Source: a virus
DNA: 38,625 bases
Reading direction: 5' to 3' (one strand)
Virus genome (UHGV): UHGV-1545242
Shown: positions 2,112 to 38,327 of the stretch, piece by piece
Position numbering within the stretch: the stretch's first letter is position 1
How the letters are laid out: each line of letters starts with the position of its first letter
Position numbers and translations under genes: made by a program
The notes under the pieces: generated by a model
Seen by the model: only the letters and a program-made list of their open reading frames with translations
What the model was told of the DNA's origin: nothing
The model's database searches: none

Positions 2112-2758
2112 GCTGCACGCTCCCGCCCCTGGTTGTCTGTTGGTGACAGCGGAGCATTGCTGAATGCATTTGTTAATCCGCCAATATCCAACGCGTATCC
2201 AGGATGTAGTTGCACTGCCGGGTCTTCGCACTGATTACCCCAAACATCGAAACCATGAGACGTCTGGCGGGCGAACAGTTCAATGCGAGAAACATCGCCT
2301 AATAATTGCACAAGTTTTTCACGAACGATATCTGGCTTTCTTGAATGCTCAAGCCGCGGTGCGGTAAATGACTGAACGATCCCTGCATTAATGCGCGTAG
2401 GTAGTTTTCCCTTTACCGCAAACAGGCAATCTTCACTATTGGCGCGAGTCATGTGTCCCATACCCATAACCAGTTTATCTGGTTGTCGACTACCACATTT
2501 TATCCACGTGAAGCCCTTCATCGTCATCAGACGGAATCCCCAGGCTTCAACAACTTTTAGTGCTTCGAGTGGTTGTGTTGGCACCCACCACATGGCCAAC
2601 AGACAGTTTTCATCGGCCAAATCCCACACAGGAAGGCGGTAGATATCCAGCACACTCATAACCGGATATTTAAAACCGGCACCGCGATTACCACCTGCGG
2701 CTTTGTCCCGGTATACCCAGGGTGGATCTGCATAGATTAGTGTGTATTTCTTAGTCAT
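2108..2758 (-). CDS. MT-A70 family DNA N6-adenine methyltransferase
   Basis: Catalytic DPPW motif ([10 protein letters not shown]) near N-terminus; start taken at MTKKYT. Confidence 0.75.
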
Positions 2759-3050
2759 AAACCACCCCACAACATCCTATGCCGCTATAGTCGCCACGGC
2801 GAAGGCCGTTAACTTTTGTGATACATTGGTCCCTGCGAACCGCGATCCTTGCACGTTCAACATCACCAGAAGCAACATCCATACACTGAAGCCAAAGGTG
2901 AGCGGCAATGCGGAATTGCCCTTTTTTCTCTCTTTCAATCGCGCGTTTTTCGATCTCTATCGCCGCAGGAGTAACGGCGACAATCTTTGACGGACTGCGC
3001 ATTGAAACCTTATTCATGTGATATTTTTCAAGTCGGCTTAACTTTCTCAC
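2751..3050 (-). CDS. Hypothetical protein, first gene of the hypothetical-methyltransferase-phosphatase operon
   Basis: 99-aa ORF whose stop overlaps the methyltransferase start; no recognisable motif; start uncertain. Confidence 0.4.
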   Translation of the reverse strand: MRKLSRLEKYHMNKVSMRSPSKIVAVTPAAIEIEKRAIEREKKGQFRIAAHLWLQCMDVASGDVERARIAVRRDQCITKVNGLRRGDYSGIGCCGVVYD

Positions 3051-5993: not shown

Positions 5994-6578
5994 TTATTGT
6001 TTGCTTTTTTCGTTCTGGTTGATGACAAATTCAATGTAACTTTCGATCTTTGCTTTCTCGGTTTCGGGTAACAATGCGTAGCGTGAGCGGTCATAGTTGA
6101 TAGTCGCAGGGTCGTGCGGGTGAATCAGTAGTTCATATCCGTGACGCCCGAATGCGGATGCAACATTCTCCAGGGTGGAAATGGAAACGCTGACCTCATT
6201 GTTTAACAGGCGGCTGATTGTCACCTGGGCGACGCCGGATGCGCGGTGAAGTTTTCCCTGCGTTGAAAGGTCGCGGCTTTCGCTCATCCAGCGTTCCAGG
6301 TTGTGAGCCGCCAGCTGACCAATGTCGCTTGGGCCGACAGGCTGAAAACCTTCCTGAGAAAGCGAGCGATCGATATCAAGCCAGTTACGGGGTTTATTGG
6401 CGGCAGCTTCAATTTTTCGCGCAACCTGGTCGCCGATAACCTTCTTGCCAAGAGCCCAGCGGTTTACCAGATTTGCCTGAGTTCCAAGTTTTTCTGCCAT
6501 CCGCGTCTGAACACCATTGAATTCACGGTCGATCAAGTCGTTGAGATTTTGCCTGCGGACGTCCTGGATACTTTTCAT
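5994..6578 (-). CDS. Prophage repressor (CI-like position), HTH DNA-binding protein without S24 peptidase domain
   Basis: Divergent from Cro-like gene; two HTH-like segments (MAEKLGTQANLVNRW; GVAQVTISRLLNNE); no Ala-Gly/Ser-Lys LexA-like autocleavage motifs seen. Confidence 0.7.
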   Translation of the reverse strand: MKSIQDVRRQNLNDLIDREFNGVQTRMAEKLGTQANLVNRWALGKKVIGDQVARKIEAAANKPRNWLDIDRSLSQEGFQPVGPSDIGQLAAHNLERWMSESRDLSTQGKLHRASGVAQVTISRLLNNEVSVSISTLENVASAFGRHGYELLIHPHDPATINYDRSRYALLPETEKAKIESYIEFVINQNEKSKQ

Positions 6579-7329: not shown

Positions 7330-8163
7330 ATGAGCAGACATGCAACAGATTGGGCCTGGGAGACAGATCCAGGTAGCTCATCATTAAAGCTCATACTGCT
7401 CTCGATGGCTGACAGAGCCGATGAATATAACCTCTGCTACCCCAGCATAGAACGCCTCGTTAAAGACACTTGCCTGAATAAAAAAACCGTGCAGGCCGGG
7501 CTTATATCGCTCATGAAAATGGGGCTTATTTCAGATACCGGAGAGAGAAAGGGAGCGACAAAAAGAGTGCGGGTTTTCTCTCTTAATATAACCAAAAACG
7601 GGAACATTAAAGGCAACCGGGAGGGGGGCAATGAACCCGAAAACGGTAATGTTACCGAAAACGGGAATATACCCAAAAACGGGATGTTGAATGATCCCAA
7701 AAACGGGATGTTGAATGATCCCAAAAACGGGATCCAGAACCAGTCATATAACCAGTCATTTAACCAAGAGAGGGAGAGCAGGACAAAAACCGGGGATTCT
7801 GTGCCTCATGACCCCGGCGCAAACAACGCCGTGATGAATAACTTTGTTCCTCCTGGTGGGCCAGGGCAATTAGGTAAATTTGTCATGCATGAACAATGGC
7901 AGCCATCAGATGACTTTCTTCGGAAAAGCTCATTGCAGGGAATCTACCTGGACAGTCTGCCAACGGCACAGGAACTTGCAGAGTTCAGAATTTACTGGAT
8001 GGCTGAGGGTAAGGCATACCATCAGGCACAGTGGGAGCAGAAGCTGGCAAGGCGCATCCAGTTCTGTAGACAGAAATCAGGTGAAGTCAGAAAGAGCCTT
8101 GACTGGCATAACACTGACTGGATAGATGAGGTGTGGGATGAAATCAACTCCAGAACTTCTTAA
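7330..8163 (+). CDS. Replication initiator (lambda O-like / replisome organiser) with internal origin iterons
   Basis: N-terminal HTH region (WETDPGSSSLKLILLSMADRADEYNLCYPSIERL), followed by iteron-encoded repeats and a C-terminal domain preceding the P-like gene. Confidence 0.75.
   Translation: MSRHATDWAWETDPGSSSLKLILLSMADRADEYNLCYPSIERLVKDTCLNKKTVQAGLISLMKMGLISDTGERKGATKRVRVFSLNITKNGNIKGNREGGNEPENGNVTENGNIPKNGMLNDPKNGMLNDPKNGIQNQSYNQSFNQERESRTKTGDSVPHDPGANNAVMNNFVPPGGPGQLGKFVMHEQWQPSDDFLRKSSLQGIYLDSLPTAQELAEFRIYWMAEGKAYHQAQWEQKLARRIQFCRQKSGEVRKSLDWHNTDWIDEVWDEINSRTS
7592..7732. repeat. Iteron array, candidate replication origin inside the initiator gene
   Basis: Six copies of CC(C/G)AAAACGGGA at 7592, 7636, 7655, 7672, 7696, 7720 including a perfect 24-bp tandem CCCAAAAACGGGATGTTGAATGAT; followed by AT-richer direct repeat cagtcatataacc/cagtcatttaacc. 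Confidence 0.65.
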
Positions 8164-8972: not shown

Positions 8973-9019
8973 TAAAATATTCTAAAATCTATTGATTTAG
9001 TGTCTTATGTGGTTTTTAA

Positions 9020-9034
9020 TTACCTCAGGGGTAA
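9020..9034. promoter_or_regulatory. Operator-like palindrome TTACC-N5-GGTAA overlapping RBS of frameshifted gene
   Basis: ttacctcaggggtaa, 62 bp from previous site, AT-rich promoter-like DNA between. Confidence 0.55.
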
Positions 9035-9037
9035 ATC

Positions 9038-9381
9038 ATGAGAAAACAGATACAGGCTCTTGGTCGACTCAAAACAGGCCAGATGAACAAAACAGAATCT
9101 GCGTATTGCCAGCACCTTGAGCAGCGTAAACGTGCAGGGGAAACGCCTGGTATCGGTTCGAGGGTATCAAGCTGCGGTTAGCTGATAACACGTTTTATAC
9201 GCCAGATTTCGCTGTGATGCTCGCCACCGGCGAGATGGAACTGCACGAAGTGAAAGGTTTCTGGACCGACGACGCCAGGGTGAAAACCAAAGTCGCCGCA
9301 GATCAGTATCCGTTCCGAATCATCGGGGTAACGGTTAAGCCAAAGAAAGCAGGTGGTGGCTGGAACATCGAAGAGTTCTGA
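9038..9381 (+). pseudogene. Frameshifted gene (recalled as DUF1064 family); reading frame broken near 9150-9180
   Basis: ATG at 9038 reads 47 codons to TAG at 9179; a second frame is open from ~9146 to TGA 9379 (WYRFEGIKLRLADNTFYTPDF...); total 344 nt, not a multiple of 3. Confidence 0.5.
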
Positions 9382-12038: not shown

Positions 12039-12380
12039 TTGATGGCTAAATCAGCAGCAGAGCGCAAAGCCGCTCAGAGAGCCAGACAAGCTGCATCTGG
12101 TGTGCGTAAGCTGGAAATTGTGCTTGATGCTCAGGAAATTGAAATGCTGGAGCGTAGCTGTGCCACGCGTCGCCCCGGGCGTGCGCCTTACGAATTTGGT
12201 GAGTATATAGCGTTACTGATCCGCCAGGATGATGCACGCGTGCGCGGGCGTATAAAATCGATCAGCAGAAAACGTTGCGGTAAGTGCGGAGAGAGAGTTC
12301 CTGTGAATTCATGCCCGTGTAATGGTGACTCGCAATGCTGGGTGACCAAAGGTTGGCATGAAACGAAATTAATAGTGTGA
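12039..12380 (+). CDS. Hypothetical protein with basic N-terminus and C-terminal Cys cluster (candidate late regulator)
   Basis: KAAQRARQAASGVRKLEIVLDAQEIEMLER then CGKCG...CPC; sits where Q-type regulators lie, just before terminase. Confidence 0.5.
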   Translation: MMAKSAAERKAAQRARQAASGVRKLEIVLDAQEIEMLERSCATRRPGRAPYEFGEYIALLIRQDDARVRGRIKSISRKRCGKCGERVPVNSCPCNGDSQCWVTKGWHETKLIV

Positions 12381-12610
12381 CATGTTACGAAGGTGTTATG
12401 CCAAAAATACGCTACGACCTTGAAGATATGAGAGATAACTCAGCAAATTTTCCGAAAGAGGTTAAATTTCTCATGCATAAGTATGGTTGCGCCAGGAGGG
12501 ATATAGTTATCGACAGTCAGCACCCTTGCGGCGAGGATGTAATTTTCATTCGCGGTAAATGGGAAGGGTATCTTGACGAGAGTTTTTACGATGAATTTGA
12601 TGGACTTTGA
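12377..12610 (+). CDS. Hypothetical protein
   Basis: 77-aa ORF, overlapping stop/start with neighbours. Confidence 0.45.
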   Translation: MTCYEGVMPKIRYDLEDMRDNSANFPKEVKFLMHKYGCARRDIVIDSQHPCGEDVIFIRGKWEGYLDESFYDEFDGL

Positions 12611-13281
12611 ATACTGCCGCCAACTATGGTGGCTTTATTTTGCATGGTACTATTACCACAACGGTAACTATTACCACGGTGGTTATGATGCCTGCTGAAC
12701 CTAAAACCTATAAACGCAAATCAACGCAATTTAAGCCACTAACAGCAATGCAGGAGGCTTATTGCCAGTCATACATCAAAACGCCTGAAAACCAGACTCA
12801 GGCAGCGATTAACGCAGGATTCTCCCCAAATACAGCGGCAGTTAAAGCCAGTGTCATGATGCGCGACGAACGCATTCAAAAACGGATTGCCGAGTTGATG
12901 GAGGAGCGCAACAAACGAATGCGCGTCAGTGCTGATTACGTTCTCATGCGCCTGGTGGAGATCGACCAGATGGACGTGATTGATATCCTCAACGACGATG
13001 GGAGCCTTAAGCCAATCCGCGAGTGGCCGAAAATCTGGCGCACTACGCTTAGCGGCTTTGATCTGTCATCGACCATCATGAACATGAACGAGGATTCGAT
13101 AGAGACAATCCTCAAAAAAATTAAATGGCCTGACAAGGTGAAGAACCTCGAACTGATTGGTAAGCACGTCGACGTCAACGCATTCAAAGAACGCCTGGAT
13201 GTTAATGTGAATGTGACAATTGCTGATCGCATAGCAGCAGCCAGGAAGCGACTCAAAGAACGTCAGGATGGTAATCAGTGA
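12607..13281 (+). CDS. Terminase small subunit
   Basis: Segment AMQEAYCQSYIKTPENQTQAAINAGFSPNTAAVKASVMMRDERIQKRIAEL matches the Terminase_2 small-subunit pattern; start may be internal (MMPAEP at ~12685). Confidence 0.75.
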   Translation: MNTAANYGGFILHGTITTTVTITTVVMMPAEPKTYKRKSTQFKPLTAMQEAYCQSYIKTPENQTQAAINAGFSPNTAAVKASVMMRDERIQKRIAELMEERNKRMRVSADYVLMRLVEIDQMDVIDILNDDGSLKPIREWPKIWRTTLSGFDLSSTIMNMNEDSIETILKKIKWPDKVKNLELIGKHVDVNAFKERLDVNVNVTIADRIAAARKRLKERQDGNQ

Positions 13282-14753
13282 CAGATGCAGCGTTATCTCC
13301 TGAAGAGCAGTTAATCGAAGATATTGCAGGGTTCACTCACGATCCGCTTGGCTATGCCCTCTATGCGTTCCCTTGGGGGGAAGAGGGGACTGAACTGGCA
13401 CATGCTACCGGTCCACGTCAGTGGCAGGCCGATGCGTTCCGAGAGATACGTGATCACCTGCAGAATCCAGAGACGCGTTATCAGCCGCTTATGCTGGGAC
13501 GTGCTTCTGGTCACGGTATTGGTAAATCCGCATTCATCTCAATGCTCATCAACTGGGGCATGTCCACTTGCGAGGATTGTAAGGTCGTGGTGACCGCCAA
13601 CACCGACAACCAGCTACGAACGAAGACCTGGCCGGAAATTATCAAGTGGTCGAACCTTGCTATCACGAAAGACTGGTTTACCTGTACCGCTACCGCGATG
13701 TACAGCAATGACCCTGGGCACGACAAGCGGTGGCGGGCTGACGCAATACCCTGGTCTGAGCACAACACTGAGGCATTCGCCGGACTACACAACGAGCGCA
13801 AACGCATCATCGTGGTATTCGATGAAGCGTCGAACATTGCGGATCTGGTGTGGGAAGTTGCTGAGGGTGCGCTTACGGACGAAGACACCGAAATCATCTG
13901 GGTGGCGTTCGGGAACCCGACGCGTAATACCGGGCGTTTCCGCGAATGTTTCCGCAAATATAAACACCGCTGGAAAACTGCGCAGATTGACAGCCGGACG
14001 GTGGAAGGCACTAACAAACAGCAGTTGCAGAAATGGGTTGATGATTACGGGGAAGACAGCGACTTCGTTAAAATCCGTGTGCGTGGCATATTCCCTGATG
14101 CATCTGAATTGCAGTTTATCCCTACCGGTCTTACTGACGAGGCAATGAAACGGGTGGTAACCGCTGCGCAGGTGGCACATGCTCCGGTGATAATCGGCGT
14201 TGACCCGGCATACTCCGGCGTTGATGACGCGGTGATATACCTGCGGCAGGGGCTACACAGTAAGGTGCTGTGGACTGGCAACAAGACTACCGACGATCTG
14301 ATTATGGCGAAGCGTATCGCTGACTTTGAAGACCAGTATCAGGCTGACGCGGTGTTCATCGACTTCGGTTACGGAACCGGTTTGAAGTCAATCGGTGACG
14401 GCTGGGGTCGTACATGGCAACTTGTTCCGTTCGGTGGCGCGTCTACTGACCCGCAGATGCTCAACAAGCGTGGGGAGATGTTCAATTCATGCAAGACATG
14501 GCTGAGGCTGGGCGGCATGCTGGATGACCAGGAAACAGCAGACGACCTGTCGGCGGCAGAGTACAAAGTTCGAGTGGACGGTAAAATCGTTATCGAACCG
14601 AAGGAAGATATCAAGGAGCGGCTTGGGCGTTCACCGGGTAAAGGCGATGCGCTACTGCTGACGTTTGCGTTCCCTGTGTCTAAGCGTCTGCGAATTCCCG
14701 GTCAGCAGAACCAGCAAGGCAAGGCCATCACAGATTACGATCCCTATGCTTAA
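13278..14753 (+). CDS. Terminase large subunit
   Basis: Walker A-like GRASGHGIGKS, Walker B-like IIVVFDEAS, C-terminal nuclease region; GTG start overlapping small-subunit stop. Confidence 0.9.
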   Translation: MTDAALSPEEQLIEDIAGFTHDPLGYALYAFPWGEEGTELAHATGPRQWQADAFREIRDHLQNPETRYQPLMLGRASGHGIGKSAFISMLINWGMSTCEDCKVVVTANTDNQLRTKTWPEIIKWSNLAITKDWFTCTATAMYSNDPGHDKRWRADAIPWSEHNTEAFAGLHNERKRIIVVFDEASNIADLVWEVAEGALTDEDTEIIWVAFGNPTRNTGRFRECFRKYKHRWKTAQIDSRTVEGTNKQQLQKWVDDYGEDSDFVKIRVRGIFPDASELQFIPTGLTDEAMKRVVTAAQVAHAPVIIGVDPAYSGVDDAVIYLRQGLHSKVLWTGNKTTDDLIMAKRIADFEDQYQADAVFIDFGYGTGLKSIGDGWGRTWQLVPFGGASTDPQMLNKRGEMFNSCKTWLRLGGMLDDQETADDLSAAEYKVRVDGKIVIEPKEDIKERLGRSPGKGDALLLTFAFPVSKRLRIPGQQNQQGKAITDYDPYA

Positions 14754-14803: not shown

Positions 14804-14830
14804 AGCCAGCTCATAGGCTGGCTGTTTGTG
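14804..14830 (+). terminator. Rho-independent terminator after terminase genes
   Basis: AGCCAGC-tcata-GCTGGCT followed by GTTTGTG. Confidence 0.55.
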
Positions 14831-14843
14831 ACATGTCACGGTG

Positions 14844-15176
14844 TTATTTCGGTAGATTGTGTTTGGCATTCGACTCGTCTATCACGTAACGCATTGCAGT
14901 TCGACCGAGATTACCAGGATCTTCATGCAGACTCACTCGTGCCTTTAGGAGCACACATTCAGCCTTGACATAGTTTGCTGGAATTATTCCTACCTCGGCA
15001 TTTTTAAATGCCTCCTTCACCGCCTCACCGTTGTACTGACCGCCAAGCAACTCTGTACATGTCAGGTTGTTATGGATAATTGCAAGGAGATCTTTAATCT
15101 CTTCACGCAGGTTTACAATCGCCATCGCGGCATTGATAGCTGCGGCATAGCGCTCAGCTGCAGTCTTCTCTTTCAT
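14844..15176 (-). CDS. Hypothetical protein, inverted moron between terminase and portal
   Basis: Minus-strand ORF inside an otherwise plus-strand late region; ATG at 15176 preceded by AAGGTGA. Confidence 0.55.
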   Translation of the reverse strand: MKEKTAAERYAAAINAAMAIVNLREEIKDLLAIIHNNLTCTELLGGQYNGEAVKEAFKNAEVGIIPANYVKAECVLLKARVSLHEDPGNLGRTAMRYVIDESNAKHNLPK

Positions 15177-15187
15177 GATTTTCACCT

Positions 15188-15213: not shown

Positions 15214-15375
15214 AACTGGAAGCAATGAGTTATGCCTTCCGTGGCTGTACTGGTTTACAGCATGAAGCCATCGCAATGGCGCCCTGCTGTAAAAAGGGCG
15301 GTGATAGTCCTTCAAGGGAAACCATCACTGCCAAGCCCCTGGAACTTCTGGCATCACGGTCCTTAGGCGTGATTC

Positions 15376-15452
15376 TGGCGTGGCATGCAGGATTCGAACC
15401 TGCGACCAACCGCTTAGAAGGCGGTTGCTCTGTCCAACTGAGCTAATGCCAC
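15376..15452 (-). tRNA. tRNA-Arg (anticodon UCU)
   Basis: Manual fold of minus-strand sequence: 7-bp acceptor stem GTGGCAT/ATGCCAC, D arm GCTC/GAGC, anticodon stem ACCGC/GCGGT with loop CTTCTAA, T arm GCAGG-TTCGAAT-CCTGC, encoded CCA. Confidence 0.85.
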
Positions 15453-15774: not shown

Positions 15775-15789
15775 TTACCTGAAAGGTAA
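15775..15789. promoter_or_regulatory. Operator-like palindrome TTACC-N5-GGTAA upstream of portal/late operon
   Basis: ttacctgaaaggtaa, identical to site at 32822. Confidence 0.55.
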
Positions 15790-15879
15790 TAATTCGCGCG
15801 TTAAATGTCAACTGTCTACGATAAATAAATCATATGTGGTTAAATTGGTAATAATTTAATTGCGTACGGAGTCATTGAT

Positions 15880-18779: not shown

Positions 18780-19772
18780 ATGACAATGGCTGTTAAAGGC
18801 TTAACTGCGCTAACGCTGGCTGACTGGGGTAAGCGCGTCGATCCAAACGGGAAAGTCGATAAGATTATCGAGCTTCTCAGTCAAACTAACCCAATCCTTC
18901 AGGATATGCCTTTTGTTGAAGGAAACCTTCCTACCGGACACCGAACCACCATTCGTTCTGGTTTGCCTTCCGCTACTTGGCGTTTGCTGAACTATGGCGT
19001 ACAACCGAGCAAATCAACAACGGTGCAGGTCACTGATTCCATTGGCATGCTGGAAACCTATGCTGAAGTCGATAAGTCTCTGGCTGATCTGAACGGTAAT
19101 ACTGCCGAATTCCGCCTGTCTGAAGACCGAGCATTTATTGAAGCGATGAATCAGGCGATGGCGCAGACGCTGTTTTACGGTGATTCCAGCGTTAACCCTC
19201 AGCAGTTTATGGGACTGTCCTCCCGCTATTCCAGCCTGTCTGCGGGTAATGCTCAGAACATCATTGATGCTGGTGGCACGGGTACAGATAACACTTCAAT
19301 CTGGTTAGTGGTGTGGGGCGAAAACACCGTGCATGGCATCTTCCCGAAAGGGCAGAAGGCTGGCATCCAGATGGAAGATAAAGGCCAGGTGACACTGGAA
19401 GATGCTAATGGCGGCAAGTACGAAGGTTATCGTACCCATTATAAGTGGGACAACGGGCTGACATTGCGTGACTGGCGCTATGTTGTTCGCATTGCAAACA
19501 TCGATGTCAGCAATCTTGACGCTCCTTCTACTGCTGCGAATATCGCAAAACTGATGATTCGTGCCCTTCATCGAATCCCAAATCGTGGGATGGGACGTCC
19601 TATTTTCTACATGAACAGAACCATTAACGAAGTGCTTGACCTGCAATCTCTGGAGAAGAGTTCTCTGGCGATCAGCGTGAAAGAGACAGAAGGCGAATGG
19701 TGGACAGAAATTCGTGGTGTGCCGATTCGCGAAACTGACGCACTTCTGGAAACAGAAGCCCGCGTGGTGTAA
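18780..19772 (+). CDS. Major capsid protein
   Basis: 330-aa ORF after scaffold, strong SD (AGAGGAAATGACAATG), followed by terminator at 20624. Confidence 0.8.
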   Translation: MTMAVKGLTALTLADWGKRVDPNGKVDKIIELLSQTNPILQDMPFVEGNLPTGHRTTIRSGLPSATWRLLNYGVQPSKSTTVQVTDSIGMLETYAEVDKSLADLNGNTAEFRLSEDRAFIEAMNQAMAQTLFYGDSSVNPQQFMGLSSRYSSLSAGNAQNIIDAGGTGTDNTSIWLVVWGENTVHGIFPKGQKAGIQMEDKGQVTLEDANGGKYEGYRTHYKWDNGLTLRDWRYVVRIANIDVSNLDAPSTAANIAKLMIRALHRIPNRGMGRPIFYMNRTINEVLDLQSLEKSSLAISVKETEGEWWTEIRGVPIRETDALLETEARVV

Positions 19773-31999: not shown

Positions 32000-32084
32000 T
32001 ATTCGGAATTGTATTGTTCGGAAGAATAATAAAATAACTAGTTAATTTGTGGATTGGTGCTGTTTTTCCATGATAGGGGTAATT

Positions 32085-32465
32085 ATGAGAAAAGTATTTT
32101 TGATTTTTGGATTTATGCTTCTCGTTGGATGCCAGTCAGCTGCACAGTTTGAAAGAAATATGCTTACGTGGCGCGGGCAGAGTATAGACGCAATGGTTCA
32201 GCAGTGGGGGTATCCTCAGGGAGAGCTTACATCTCCAGATGGAAACAGAGTGTATGTTTACTCAAGCTCTGGTAGTTATAACGTACCACAAACCACAACG
32301 TATAATACTACGTCTAATCTAATTGGTAATACTATATATTCAAACACATACGCAACAACTGATGGCGGTTATACACTCCATTTCAGTTGCTCTGTTTACG
32401 TTGAGTTTGGTGCTGATAAGATTATTAAAAATGTTACATGGCGCGGTAATAATTGCGTTGCGTGA
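32085..32465 (+). CDS. Outer-membrane lipoprotein (moron), candidate superinfection-exclusion factor
   Basis: Signal peptide with lipobox MRKVFLIFGFMLLVGC, +2 residue Gln; Thr/Ser/Tyr/Asn-rich mature part with two C-terminal Cys; AT-rich. Confidence 0.65.
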   Translation: MRKVFLIFGFMLLVGCQSAAQFERNMLTWRGQSIDAMVQQWGYPQGELTSPDGNRVYVYSSSGSYNVPQTTTYNTTSNLIGNTIYSNTYATTDGGYTLHFSCSVYVEFGADKIIKNVTWRGNNCVA

Positions 32466-32473
32466 CATGTCAC

Positions 32474-32496
32474 AGGCCGCTTTCGCGGCCTTTAAA
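32474..32496 (+). terminator. Terminator hairpin between convergent moron genes
   Basis: AGGCCGC-tttc-GCGGCCT followed by TTTAAATTT. Confidence 0.55.
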
Positions 32497-32497
32497 T

Positions 32498-32755
32498 TTA
32501 CCGGGTTTGTTTTCGTAATTGTTCGGCACAATAGTCGAGATGTGTTTGCAGATCCTGCATAGACATCTGTGAGCTGGTGACGTAGTTAATCAATGCAGTC
32601 AGTTCGGCAAGTGGGCCATCGACATTAAATCCATCCTTATCGAGATCCCGGAGTAATTTCATCAAGTGCGATCCCTCCACCAGTGACCTGACGCCTCCCG
32701 GCGTGTGAATCCTTTCGGTAAATCCGTCTTCCAGTGGATAGTGATACTGCTGCAT
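32498..32755 (-). CDS. Hypothetical 85-aa protein, convergent to lipoprotein and divergent from tailspike
   Basis: Minus-strand ORF open in AT-rich DNA; ATG at 32755 preceded by GGAGAAG; ORF track shows a longer 126-aa extension. Confidence 0.5.
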   Translation of the reverse strand: MQQYHYPLEDGFTERIHTPGGVRSLVEGSHLMKLLRDLDKDGFNVDGPLAELTALINYVTSSQMSMQDLQTHLDYCAEQLRKQTR

Positions 32756-32821
32756 CTTATCTTCTCCATGCAATAACTGTATATTTATACAGTAGCAAAT
32801 AATTTGTTTGCTATCCAGCAC

Positions 32822-32836
32822 GTTTTGCAAATTACC
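32822..32836. promoter_or_regulatory. Operator-like palindrome TTACC-N5-GGTAA in divergent region upstream of tailspike
   Basis: ttacctgaaaggtaa; followed by atctattcgta, also seen at 7011-7021. Confidence 0.55.
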
Positions 32837-32950
32837 TGAAAGGTAATATCTATTCGTATTTACAGTCTTTCTATCCATATGTGGTTTTCCAGGTAATAGA
32901 ATAACCAGATATGCGGCGCAACGGGTGCTGCGACTATCTGGAGATTTAAC

Positions 32951-38211: not shown

Positions 38212-38327
38212 ATATAAAACGGTACGGGAAAAATTGAGATTTGGAAAAATGTTATCACTCAATTGGTTATGGTTATCGTAAATAATTGAGTGGGAATGAT
38301 TTTGATCCCTGCACTATGAATGAACAA

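Follow-up and report, generated by a model that had tools for sequence, protein, structure and literature searches.

The Q antiterminator is a zinc-containing DNA-binding protein that is encoded directly upstream of its site. The gp71 stoperators of mycobacteriophage L5 comprise about 30 asymmetric sites that are bound by the prophage repressor and have been proposed to stop elongation. Binding by ribbon-helix-helix (RHH) proteins is exemplified by the omega repressor, where adjacent RHH dimers use a 7-bp spacing, and phage lambda Orf73 is counted among the TraR/DksA C4 zinc-finger proteins that bind RNA polymerase. Gram-positive temperate phages possess late activators of the RinA/ArpU type, and RinA is described (PMC3152322) as binding the promoter region upstream of terS, where it activates the late operon. 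Late-gene timing is a question in its own right in the epsilon15-like phages (Uetakevirus), from which N- and Q-type factors are missing. We have analyzed a 38,625-nucleotide stretch of viral DNA (virus genome UHGV-1545242; the whole stretch is referred to as the window) in which the gene at the boundary of early and late functions encodes a 112-residue protein with an RHH domain and a zinc knuckle. The gene travels between unrelated phages together with a palindrome at or near its own stop codon, which is the putative cognate site of the protein.

The window represents a temperate podophage of E. coli of the epsilon15/phiV10 type (genus Uetakevirus), and the region around 12039-12380 has 97% identity with phages ZX5, TL-2011b and phiV10. 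Its gene order begins with the integrase, followed by a leftward early operon (recT, exonuclease, PerC-like, AlpA-like and methylase genes) and the repressor gene on the minus strand. The rightward early operon then contains a Cro-like gene, O-like and P-like replication genes, and accessory genes of the Ead/Ea22, DUF551 and Ea types. It is closed by the gene of the 112-residue protein, after which come terS and terL. Beyond terL there is a minus-strand moron and a tRNA-Arg gene, then the head-tail operon, and 3' of the latter a minus-strand ant gene followed by the tailspike gene and the lysis genes (Table 1). In the window a 70-residue ORF separates the gene from terS. This ORF is missing from TL-2011b and ZX5, which retain a remnant of its 3' end. 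A partnership in which the 112-residue protein would be the antitoxin of this ORF was rejected, since most relatives do not carry the ORF.

Table 1. Features of the window that are discussed in the text (positions are those of the whole stretch).
Feature	Position	Strand	Remarks
Gene of 112-residue RHH and zinc-knuckle protein	12042..12380	+	PHROG 536; epsilon15 gp49 / N15 gp46 family
Site A, GTGACATGTTAC	12377..12388		one mismatch to GTGAC-NN-GTCAC; overlaps stop codon of the gene
70-residue ORF	12398..12610	+	PHROG 1541, function not assigned there; between site A and T1
Terminator T1, intrinsic, GCCGCCAACTATGGTGGC and T-tract	12616..12642	+	closes early operon, before terS; annotated rho-independent in epsilon15
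Two predicted Rep operators, TTACCACAACGGTAA and TTACCACGGTGGTTA	12653..12685 (12653, 12671)		between T1 and terS start codon; epsilon15 equivalent annotated 'repressor'
terS (12688-13281) and terL (13278-14753)	12688..14753	+	Pfam Terminase_2, E 1e-29
Terminator hairpin T2, bidirectional	14804..14823		after terL; T-tract strong on minus strand, weak on plus
Site B, perfect GTGACATGTCAC	14828..14839		4 nt from T2; 4 nt from stop codon of minus-strand moron 14844-15185
Site C, perfect GTGACATGTCAC	32462..32473		overlaps stop codon of ORF 32049-32465, with which the head-tail operon ends; upstream of T3 by 1 nt
Terminator T3	32474..32491	+	closes head-tail operon, convergent with ant
Prophage repressor, SPC32H Rep homologue	5994..6578	-	match to PDB 5D50, E 3.5e-42
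Predicted Rep operator	136		before int
Predicted Rep operators	5860, 5922		flank repressor gene, at PL
Predicted Rep operators	6634, 6682		flank repressor gene, at PR
Predicted Rep operator	7019		early right operon
Predicted Rep operators	8958, 9020		after replication genes
Predicted Rep operator	15775..15789		upstream of head operon; not a site of the 112-residue protein
Predicted Rep operator	32832..32846		upstream of tailspike gene; not a site of the 112-residue protein

The original prediction had proposed a 113-residue ORF at 12039-12380. The plus-strand ORF is real, but its start and length have to be corrected: the homologues begin with MAKS and are 112 residues long, so that translation is assigned to the ATG at 12042 and not to the TTG at 12039, with the stop codon ending at 12380. 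Alignment of 57 homologous sequences bears out the accompanying description of a basic, possibly RHH-like N-terminus and a C-terminal Cys cluster. The protein is arranged as an N-terminal basic helix in which R8 and R13 are almost invariant, an RHH domain composed of a strand-like segment with the consensus x(R/K)(L/I/V)E(I/L/V)xL and two helices, a long helix, and a zinc knuckle with the motif CxKCGxxLPxGC...GDxxCW, where C79 and C82 are invariant and C99 is present in over 90% of the sequences. The strand-helix-helix fold is that of the RHH superfamily (CopG/Arc/MetJ) and places the protein in it. The combination of RHH domain and zinc knuckle supports the view that this is a sequence-specific regulator, with DNA binding as the predicted activity.

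Sequence comparisons give the protein a phage family. It matches the profile of PHROG 536 ('transcriptional regulator') over residues 1-111 (E 6.9e-54), and tblastn relates it to epsilon15 gp49 (76%) and N15 gp46 (35%), a similarity between these two phage proteins that the epsilon15 record itself remarks upon. General resources are less informative. No Pfam model matches at E<=1, RHH models included, the NCBIfam model of the RHH protein YbfE gives a weak match (E 0.054, 13.9 bits with a cut-off of 62), and no usable family was found in Pfam, NCBIfam or PADLOC. A search of the PDB with the single protein sequence returned nothing, Foldseek comparisons with the PDB and with BFVD were uninformative, and the combination of basic helix, RHH domain and zinc knuckle had no counterpart in the PDB searches. 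The best matches in a profile search of PDB sequences were TraR and YbiI, both weak (E ~0.02) and covering residues 49-110. Two natural variants indicate that an intact protein may be dispensable for lytic growth. A frameshift in the gene copy of the isolated phage EC.W1-9 deletes the zinc knuckle, with the reservation that it falls in an A-run where a sequencing error is possible, and the SPN1S/SPC32H group has a short unrelated stretch in place of the N-terminal basic helix.

The position of the gene at the boundary between early and late genes, upstream of the terminase genes, had been recognized correctly and is kept in all epsilon15-like phages examined. The gene lies directly before terS in every enterobacterial database phage whose TerL is at least 78% identical. 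Homologues also occur in very different settings. The lambda-like phage Chlobot has an intact copy encoding an 89% identical protein in the exo-xis region of its pL operon, where it adjoins a DksA-like gene. The homologue is gp46 in N15 and its relatives, follows gpA in P2-like Yersinia phages, stands immediately before gemA in Mu-like transposable phages and is the closing gene of an early operon in Vibrio phages, with another copy in myophage ZF40.

It had further been stated that no Q-type antiterminator is recognizable in this genome, and we agree, as Pfam and PHROGs searches with the early ORFs of the window returned no Q family. The 112-residue protein itself has no match to Phage_antitermQ (PF06530) or Phage_antiter_Q (PF06323) in Pfam at E<=1, is assigned by PHROGs to 536 and not to Q, and does not match the Ogr_Delta zinc-finger profile (PF04606) in Pfam. 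However, treating the protein as the Q equivalent on account of its position goes too far, for a position before terS is not enough. A genuine Q is present alongside the homologue in Chlobot (E 3.5e-53) and in the N15-like phage 48ST307 (E 1.3e-86), N15 has a gp40 annotated as late transcription activator in addition to its family member gp46, a P2-like Yersinia phage with a homologue also has a true Ogr (E 2e-19), and the Mu-like phages with homologues have a GemA(-Mor) module. Because homologues coexist with Q, Ogr or GemA/Mor regulators, the family is not a general substitute for Q. A role of the 112-residue protein in switching on late genes is nevertheless possible.

Most lineages of the family have a palindrome, YGTGAC-NN-GTCACR (12-14 bp), where the gene ends, at or near its stop codon. 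Its core is GTGAC-NN-GTCAC, and the window carries the variant GTGACATGTTAC. Of 79 close relatives, 75 have a perfect 12-mer that overlaps the stop codon; the variant that the window has at 12377, with one mismatch, is present in only two of the 79. The association extends to other species. Among 27 prophages, each of another species (Citrobacter, Pantoea, Klebsiella, Xenorhabdus, Serratia and others), in which the DNA downstream of the gene is unrelated, 21 have an exact GTGAC-NN-GTCAC between -3 and +11 nt of the stop codon, and two more have it with one mismatch. Chance would yield ten fixed bases in a 30-nt window at approximately 3e-5 per locus. Nucleotide homology between the window and Chlobot is confined to approximately the coding sequence (12042-12373, 91% identity) and stops 7 nt before the stop codon, and despite this GTGACATGTCAC is found just after the Chlobot gene too.

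In epsilon15, SPC32H, TL-2011b, ZX5 and ZF40 the same sequence, GTGACATGTCAC, either overlaps the stop codon or comes after it. N15 and 48ST307 have the version GTGACTGGTCAC overlapping the stop codon, the P0208 group has GTGACAGGTCAC in this position, and in the Mu-like phages GTGACCGGTCAC lies within the 3' end of the reading frame and is translated as VTGH. The flanking positions, which lay outside the search pattern, are Y in 92% and R in 92% of 33 non-redundant contexts, extending the motif to 14 bp. The association also holds in the reverse direction, as 19 of 80 stretches of viral contigs that were picked solely because they contain CGTGACATGTCACG code for a family member inside the stretch itself. 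A close relative is present in at least 555 of the 2.9 million contigs of the collection (a lower bound of ~0.02%), and from this we estimate the share of viral contigs with a family member at well under 1%. There are a few loci whose homologue has no site nearby (L128 and Aeromonas L007), and some Mu-like copies lie inside a transposase gene, where coding constraint could contribute to conservation. A role as RNA hairpin or protein-binding RNA site was set aside: the RNA form folds weakly, with a 4-bp stem, which makes a DNA site more plausible than an RNA site. In addition, the GTCAC arms are 7 bp apart, a spacing that, by analogy with omega, could accommodate a pair of adjacent RHH dimers.

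Protein and palindrome are connected by an association between sequences, from which we infer that YGTGAC-NN-GTCACR is the cognate site of the 112-residue protein. The family appears to move between phage types as a two-part module that consists of the gene and the palindrome at or near its stop codon. This module, common to podophages and to lambda-like, N15-like, P2-like, Mu-like and Vibrio phages, has apparently gone undescribed. In the papers that we searched, we found neither the GTGACATGTCAC palindrome nor a characterization of epsilon15 gp49 or N15 gp46. The ZX5 paper tested only the repressor, antirepressor and integrase and does not mention the gene.

Within the epsilon15-like phages the palindrome is not restricted to the end of the gene. 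Epsilon15 and SPC32H have it at the same three places as the window, with site B kept at position 2142 of epsilon15, at 2145 of SPC32H and in many prophages, and site C at 19517 of epsilon15 and 19634 of SPC32H. SPC32H has a fourth copy, with one mismatch, after Rz. The minus-strand morons that adjoin site B in the relatives are unrelated to each other and range from 63 to 201 residues, and all of them end 4 nt from the site. Site A and T1 are separated by 22 nt in epsilon15, and in the window the 70-residue ORF is inserted between them. The order of gene, site, terminator and terS is conserved in every epsilon15-like phage examined. The roughly 45 nt between T1 and terS are filled by Rep operators. 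In Vibrio phage K253 the palindrome lies 19 nt before the terS start codon. At a threshold of >=9 of 12, neither terS nor the head operon nor the tailspike gene was found to have a sigma70-like promoter ahead of it on the plus strand; PL and PR, unlike these units, are recognizable as promoters. When read by eye, the DNA before the head operon contains an extended -10 sequence, TGgTTAAAT, at 15837-15845. Adjacency to a terminator was considered as a rule for the whole family and abandoned. A terminator lies at most 120 nt downstream in 11 of 37 diverse loci, as against 11.7% of control ORF ends, so that the adjacency is limited to certain lineages.

These observations suggest a model in which the 112-residue protein is expressed early, binds YGTGAC-NN-GTCACR as DNA and modulates the passage of RNA polymerase at operon junctions, among them the junction at which the early genes give way to the terminase genes. 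The palindrome marks the 3' ends of three units in this phage, namely the early operon, terS-terL and the head-tail operon, each beside an intrinsic terminator. A role in passage across junctions appears the most likely one because all sites in this phage sit at unit ends beside terminators. That the protein is an early sequence-specific DNA-binding protein, with the GTGAC palindrome as cognate site, which modulates transcription across operon junctions is a reading in which we have confidence and doubt in about equal measure. The effect on transcription could have either sign, consisting of reinforced stops and insulation, or of read-through of T1 into the terminase genes. Since terS is preceded by T1, control of read-through would matter, and such a timer similar to Q is favored by the order of gene, site, terminator and terS and by the small space before terS, which leaves no room for a promoter. 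The opposite sign, with stops reinforced or units insulated, is favored by the co-location with terminators at convergent junctions and by the position of site B, which lies beyond T2 on the plus strand and so also speaks against simple local antitermination. Two further observations count against a junction-binding role as a whole: a site 3' of the gene is unusual for an RHH autoregulator, and site A of the window is itself mismatched. If the protein does bind the palindrome, the control of transcription at the operon boundaries of many temperate phages would become open to direct tests, and a gene whose only present labels are 'transcriptional regulator' or 'hypothetical' would gain a function. 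Otherwise, the palindrome would be an unexplained conserved element at module junctions.

The stronger claim that the protein is a true analogue of Q, which would load on elongating RNA polymerase at the GTGAC palindrome so that T1, and later T2 and T3, are read through and the last early product switches on the terminase and late genes, appears unlikely to us. It would account for the gene order conserved throughout the epsilon15-like phages examined, for the short, operator-filled space before terS with no sigma70-like promoter found in it, and for the placement of the K253 site just ahead of terS. However, most family members have no terminator nearby and coexist with Q, Ogr or a Mor module, nothing comparable to the promoter or pause element of qut is evident, the plus-strand position of site B beyond T2 is awkward for it, and the frameshifted copy of EC.W1-9 speaks against essentiality. 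That the family constitutes a new kind of transcription-junction regulator, a small RHH and zinc protein that would recognize the palindrome at its own gene end and at further operon ends, change the course of elongating RNA polymerase there and set the early-to-late switch of epsilon15-like phages by read-through of the terminator before terS, must be called distinctly doubtful.

It is similarly improbable, in our estimation, that the palindrome marks module boundaries, serves recombination or acts as an RNA element of 3' ends and happens to be carried on mobile cassettes, with the protein being a host-directed accessory early factor such as a binder of RNA polymerase via a TraR/DksA-like zinc finger. 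This explanation draws on the location of palindromes at junctions beside variable morons, exemplified by the constant 4-nt distance to site B, and on the exchange of the gene as a discrete cassette. Additionally, the Chlobot copy lies in the accessory exo-xis region beside a DksA-like gene, and the zinc-knuckle half of the protein is the part that finds TraR and YbiI, weakly, among PDB profiles.

The original prediction had sought the sites of the protein elsewhere, at palindromes placed at 15775 and 32822 before late genes. The first coordinate is right and the second is off by 10, as identical 15-mers, TTACCTGAAAGGTAA, are located at 15775 and 32832. Their consensus, TTACC-N5-GGTAA, has 12 occurrences in the window with up to one mismatch when 0.58 are expected. 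Sites at PL and PR overlap recognizable sigma70 promoters (TTGACA-17-AATTAT and TTGTTA-17-TATTAT). The repressor is 43% identical to epsilon15 gp38, the corresponding sites of epsilon15, among them those ahead of terS, of gp3 and of the tailspike gene, are annotated in RefSeq as 'repressor'-binding, and SPC32H has TTACC-N5-GGTAA in the same places. Chlobot, by contrast, whose immunity region is of the lambda type, does not contain a single such site in 46.5 kb, even with one mismatch allowed. The palindrome therefore follows Rep and not the 112-residue protein, whose Chlobot counterpart is 89% identical, and those at 15775 and 32832 are, on comparative grounds, predicted operators of Rep. A model in which the protein acts as late activator or derepressor at these sites before the head operon and tailspike gene has in its favor the DNA-binding fold, the boundary position and late promoters that lack a sigma70 consensus and could conceivably need an activator, but it is highly improbable given the flanking of the repressor gene at PL and PR, the number of copies, the epsilon15 annotation, the homology to SPC32H Rep and the absence of sites in Chlobot.

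What survives of the proposed control of late genes by activation or derepression is the derepression, because the late units carry operators; the participation of the 112-residue protein at these operators does not. A tie of the protein to the late genes persists in another form, with its probable site located between its own gene and T1, the terminator ahead of terS. Rep would keep the late promoters off via TTACC-N5-GGTAA, and not the 112-residue protein. An Ant homologue (88% identical) is encoded at 32498-32758, and a perfect LexA box is present at 32777-32792. Another motif, CATATGTGGTT-N5-GGTAAT, is shared by the head, tailspike and 9004 units, with conservation in epsilon15 and SPC32H; it was rejected as a site of the 112-residue protein, being unrelated to the gene in Chlobot. 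There are two layers that had been merged into one: predicted direct repression of every transcription unit by Rep, and a separate module of protein and palindrome. The specific model of the original prediction is not supported, and a role of the protein at the early/late boundary is possible.

Comparison with the described systems places this second layer apart from each of them. As with the Q antiterminators of lambda, 82 and 21, the gene is the last regulator gene of the early operon, is directly followed by a probable site and by a terminator ahead of the late genes, and encodes a small, in this case predicted, DNA-binding protein with a Cys cluster. Unlike them, the protein has an RHH fold with no sequence or profile similarity to Q, and the candidate site lies after a stop codon inside an operon, with no promoter or sigma-dependent pause element. 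The RinA/ArpU activators likewise have their gene immediately upstream of terS, but they are unrelated in sequence and fold, and in the window no terS promoter is recognizable and the palindrome precedes a terminator. The 112-residue protein thus resembles Q and RinA in position only. For the SPC32H Rep system and the 'repressor' sites of epsilon15, the sites at 15775 and 32832 agree in consensus and position and the repressor of the window is a homologue of Rep, so that this system explains the palindromes of the original prediction but not the 112-residue protein.

The L5 stoperators share with the GTGAC palindrome the occurrence of several copies of one short site at gene boundaries through a phage genome; here, in contrast, there are three or four symmetric sites, located beside terminators and linked to an early lytic gene. 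The TraR/DksA proteins share the start of the zinc motif, CxxCGxx(I/L)P, after a long helix, and their genes are often found in phage exo-xis or nin regions. They differ in the zf-dskA_traR signature CxxC-N17-CxxC, where the 112-residue protein has CxxC, C and C with no terminal CxxC, and in their acidic-tip coiled coil or helix, which enters the secondary channel of RNA polymerase and in whose place the 112-residue protein has the basic helix and RHH domain. Structure searches with the protein do not recover TraR and Pfam gives no match to DksA/TraR, so kinship based on the profile match at E ~0.02 was not adopted and is kept as a lead. Finally, the RHH repressors Arc, Mnt, CopG, AmrZ, omega of pSM19035 and the TacA antitoxins do not have the additional basic helix and zinc knuckle, and the 112-residue protein differs from them also in having no RHH match in Pfam and a candidate site at the 3' end of its gene and not in a promoter. 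The locus is therefore best described as encoding what is probably an RHH regulator of unusual architecture, whose gene carries at its 3' end a palindrome, not noticed before, that is the putative cognate site.

Analysis of the window indicates that the prophage repressor Rep is likely to have a reach well beyond its early promoters. Rep-type operators (TTACC-N5-GGTAA) occur 12 times versus 0.58 expected, and they precede nearly all transcription units, among them int and terS as well as the head operon and the tailspike gene. Thus, the late units appear to be silenced directly by the prophage repressor, rather than through PL and PR alone.

Release from this repression probably occurs via SOS-controlled antirepression and not via repressor cleavage, since the window encodes a homologue of the SPC32H antirepressor Ant that has a perfect LexA box upstream. 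A second LexA-box-like sequence, CTGTACTGGTTTACAG, is located at 15245-15260, approximately 60 nt upstream of a minus-strand moron that may also be under SOS regulation.

Features of the window and of comparison phages
Feature	Position	Strand	Remarks
Rep-type operators TTACC-N5-GGTAA	136, 5860, 5922, 6634, 6682, 7019, 8958, 9020, 12653, 12671, 15775, 32832		
PerC-family "transcriptional activator"	2751-3050	minus	Pfam PerC, E 3.8e-07; PHROG 868; leftward early operon
70-aa ORF	12398-12610		PHROG 1541; between regulator gene and terminator T1
Moron	14844-15185	minus	PHROG 27507
tRNA-Arg(TCT) gene	15376-15452	minus	
CATATGTGGTT module	15831-15853, 32876-32898, 9004-9034		
Antirepressor gene (ant)	32498-32758	minus	88% identity to SPC32H Ant
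Perfect LexA box CTGTATATTTATACAG	32777-32792		19 nt upstream of antirepressor start codon
CATATGTGGTT module, epsilon15 (L009)	2988, 19940, 35953, 24754		
Additional GTGAC-NN-GTCAC, Mu-like phages	L093 1451 and 1892; L107 1119; L108 719		Within Mu-type transposase gene
Additional GTGAC-NN-GTCAC, N15 (L145)	3238		Within N15 repA

The head and tailspike units additionally carry a module, CATATGTGGTT-N5-GGTAAT, that is situated 28-40 nt 3' of the first Rep operator and that is kept in both epsilon15 and SPC32H. In the copy belonging to the unit 3' of the replication genes, TTACC takes the place of GGTAAT as second element. This module may be a piece of non-consensus late promoters or else an activator site. 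For example, an extended -10 sequence, TGgTTAAAT at 15837-15845, is a candidate element of such a non-consensus late promoter.

The surroundings of the gene for the 112-aa candidate regulator vary among close relatives. The 70-aa ORF that follows this gene is absent from TL-2011b and ZX5, where just its final ~30 nt remain, and its presence or absence is an indel polymorphism between near-identical phages. Accordingly, site B, a copy of the GTGAC-NN-GTCAC palindrome proposed as the target of the 112-aa protein, is found at +2448 or +2262 from the end of the regulator gene in relatives. On the strand opposite to the terminase and head operons, the tRNA-Arg(TCT) gene occupies the interval that separates them. 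In phage EC.W1-9 the regulator homologue (1444-1790) has a frameshift where the long helix meets the zinc knuckle. This phage is presumably viable, as it was deposited as an isolate and not as a prophage, and the frameshift either hints that the phage can do without the regulator gene or reflects a sequencing error within a run of A residues.

Several features of the early region and right end were also noted. The PerC-family gene is a further candidate regulator. Six direct repeats of 18-24 nt with the core CCCAAAAACGGGA, located at 7584-7736 within the O-like replication gene (7330-8163), are probably origin iterons. A DUF1064-type gene 3' of the replication genes (9037-9381) appears to be frameshifted, with an ORF from the ATG at 9037 that ends after ~50 aa and the remainder of the protein carried on by an ORF at 9214-9381; the ZX5 annotation has an intact DUF1064 gene of 345 nt at the equivalent position. 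The attP core of ZX5, reported as ATTGAGTGGGAATGATT (PMC9782041), has a single occurrence in the window at 38285-38301, close to the right end.

Finally, the GTGAC-NN-GTCAC palindrome is also present in other phages, where the intragenic copies in the Mu-type transposase gene and N15 repA are kept among relatives with a variable centre dinucleotide.
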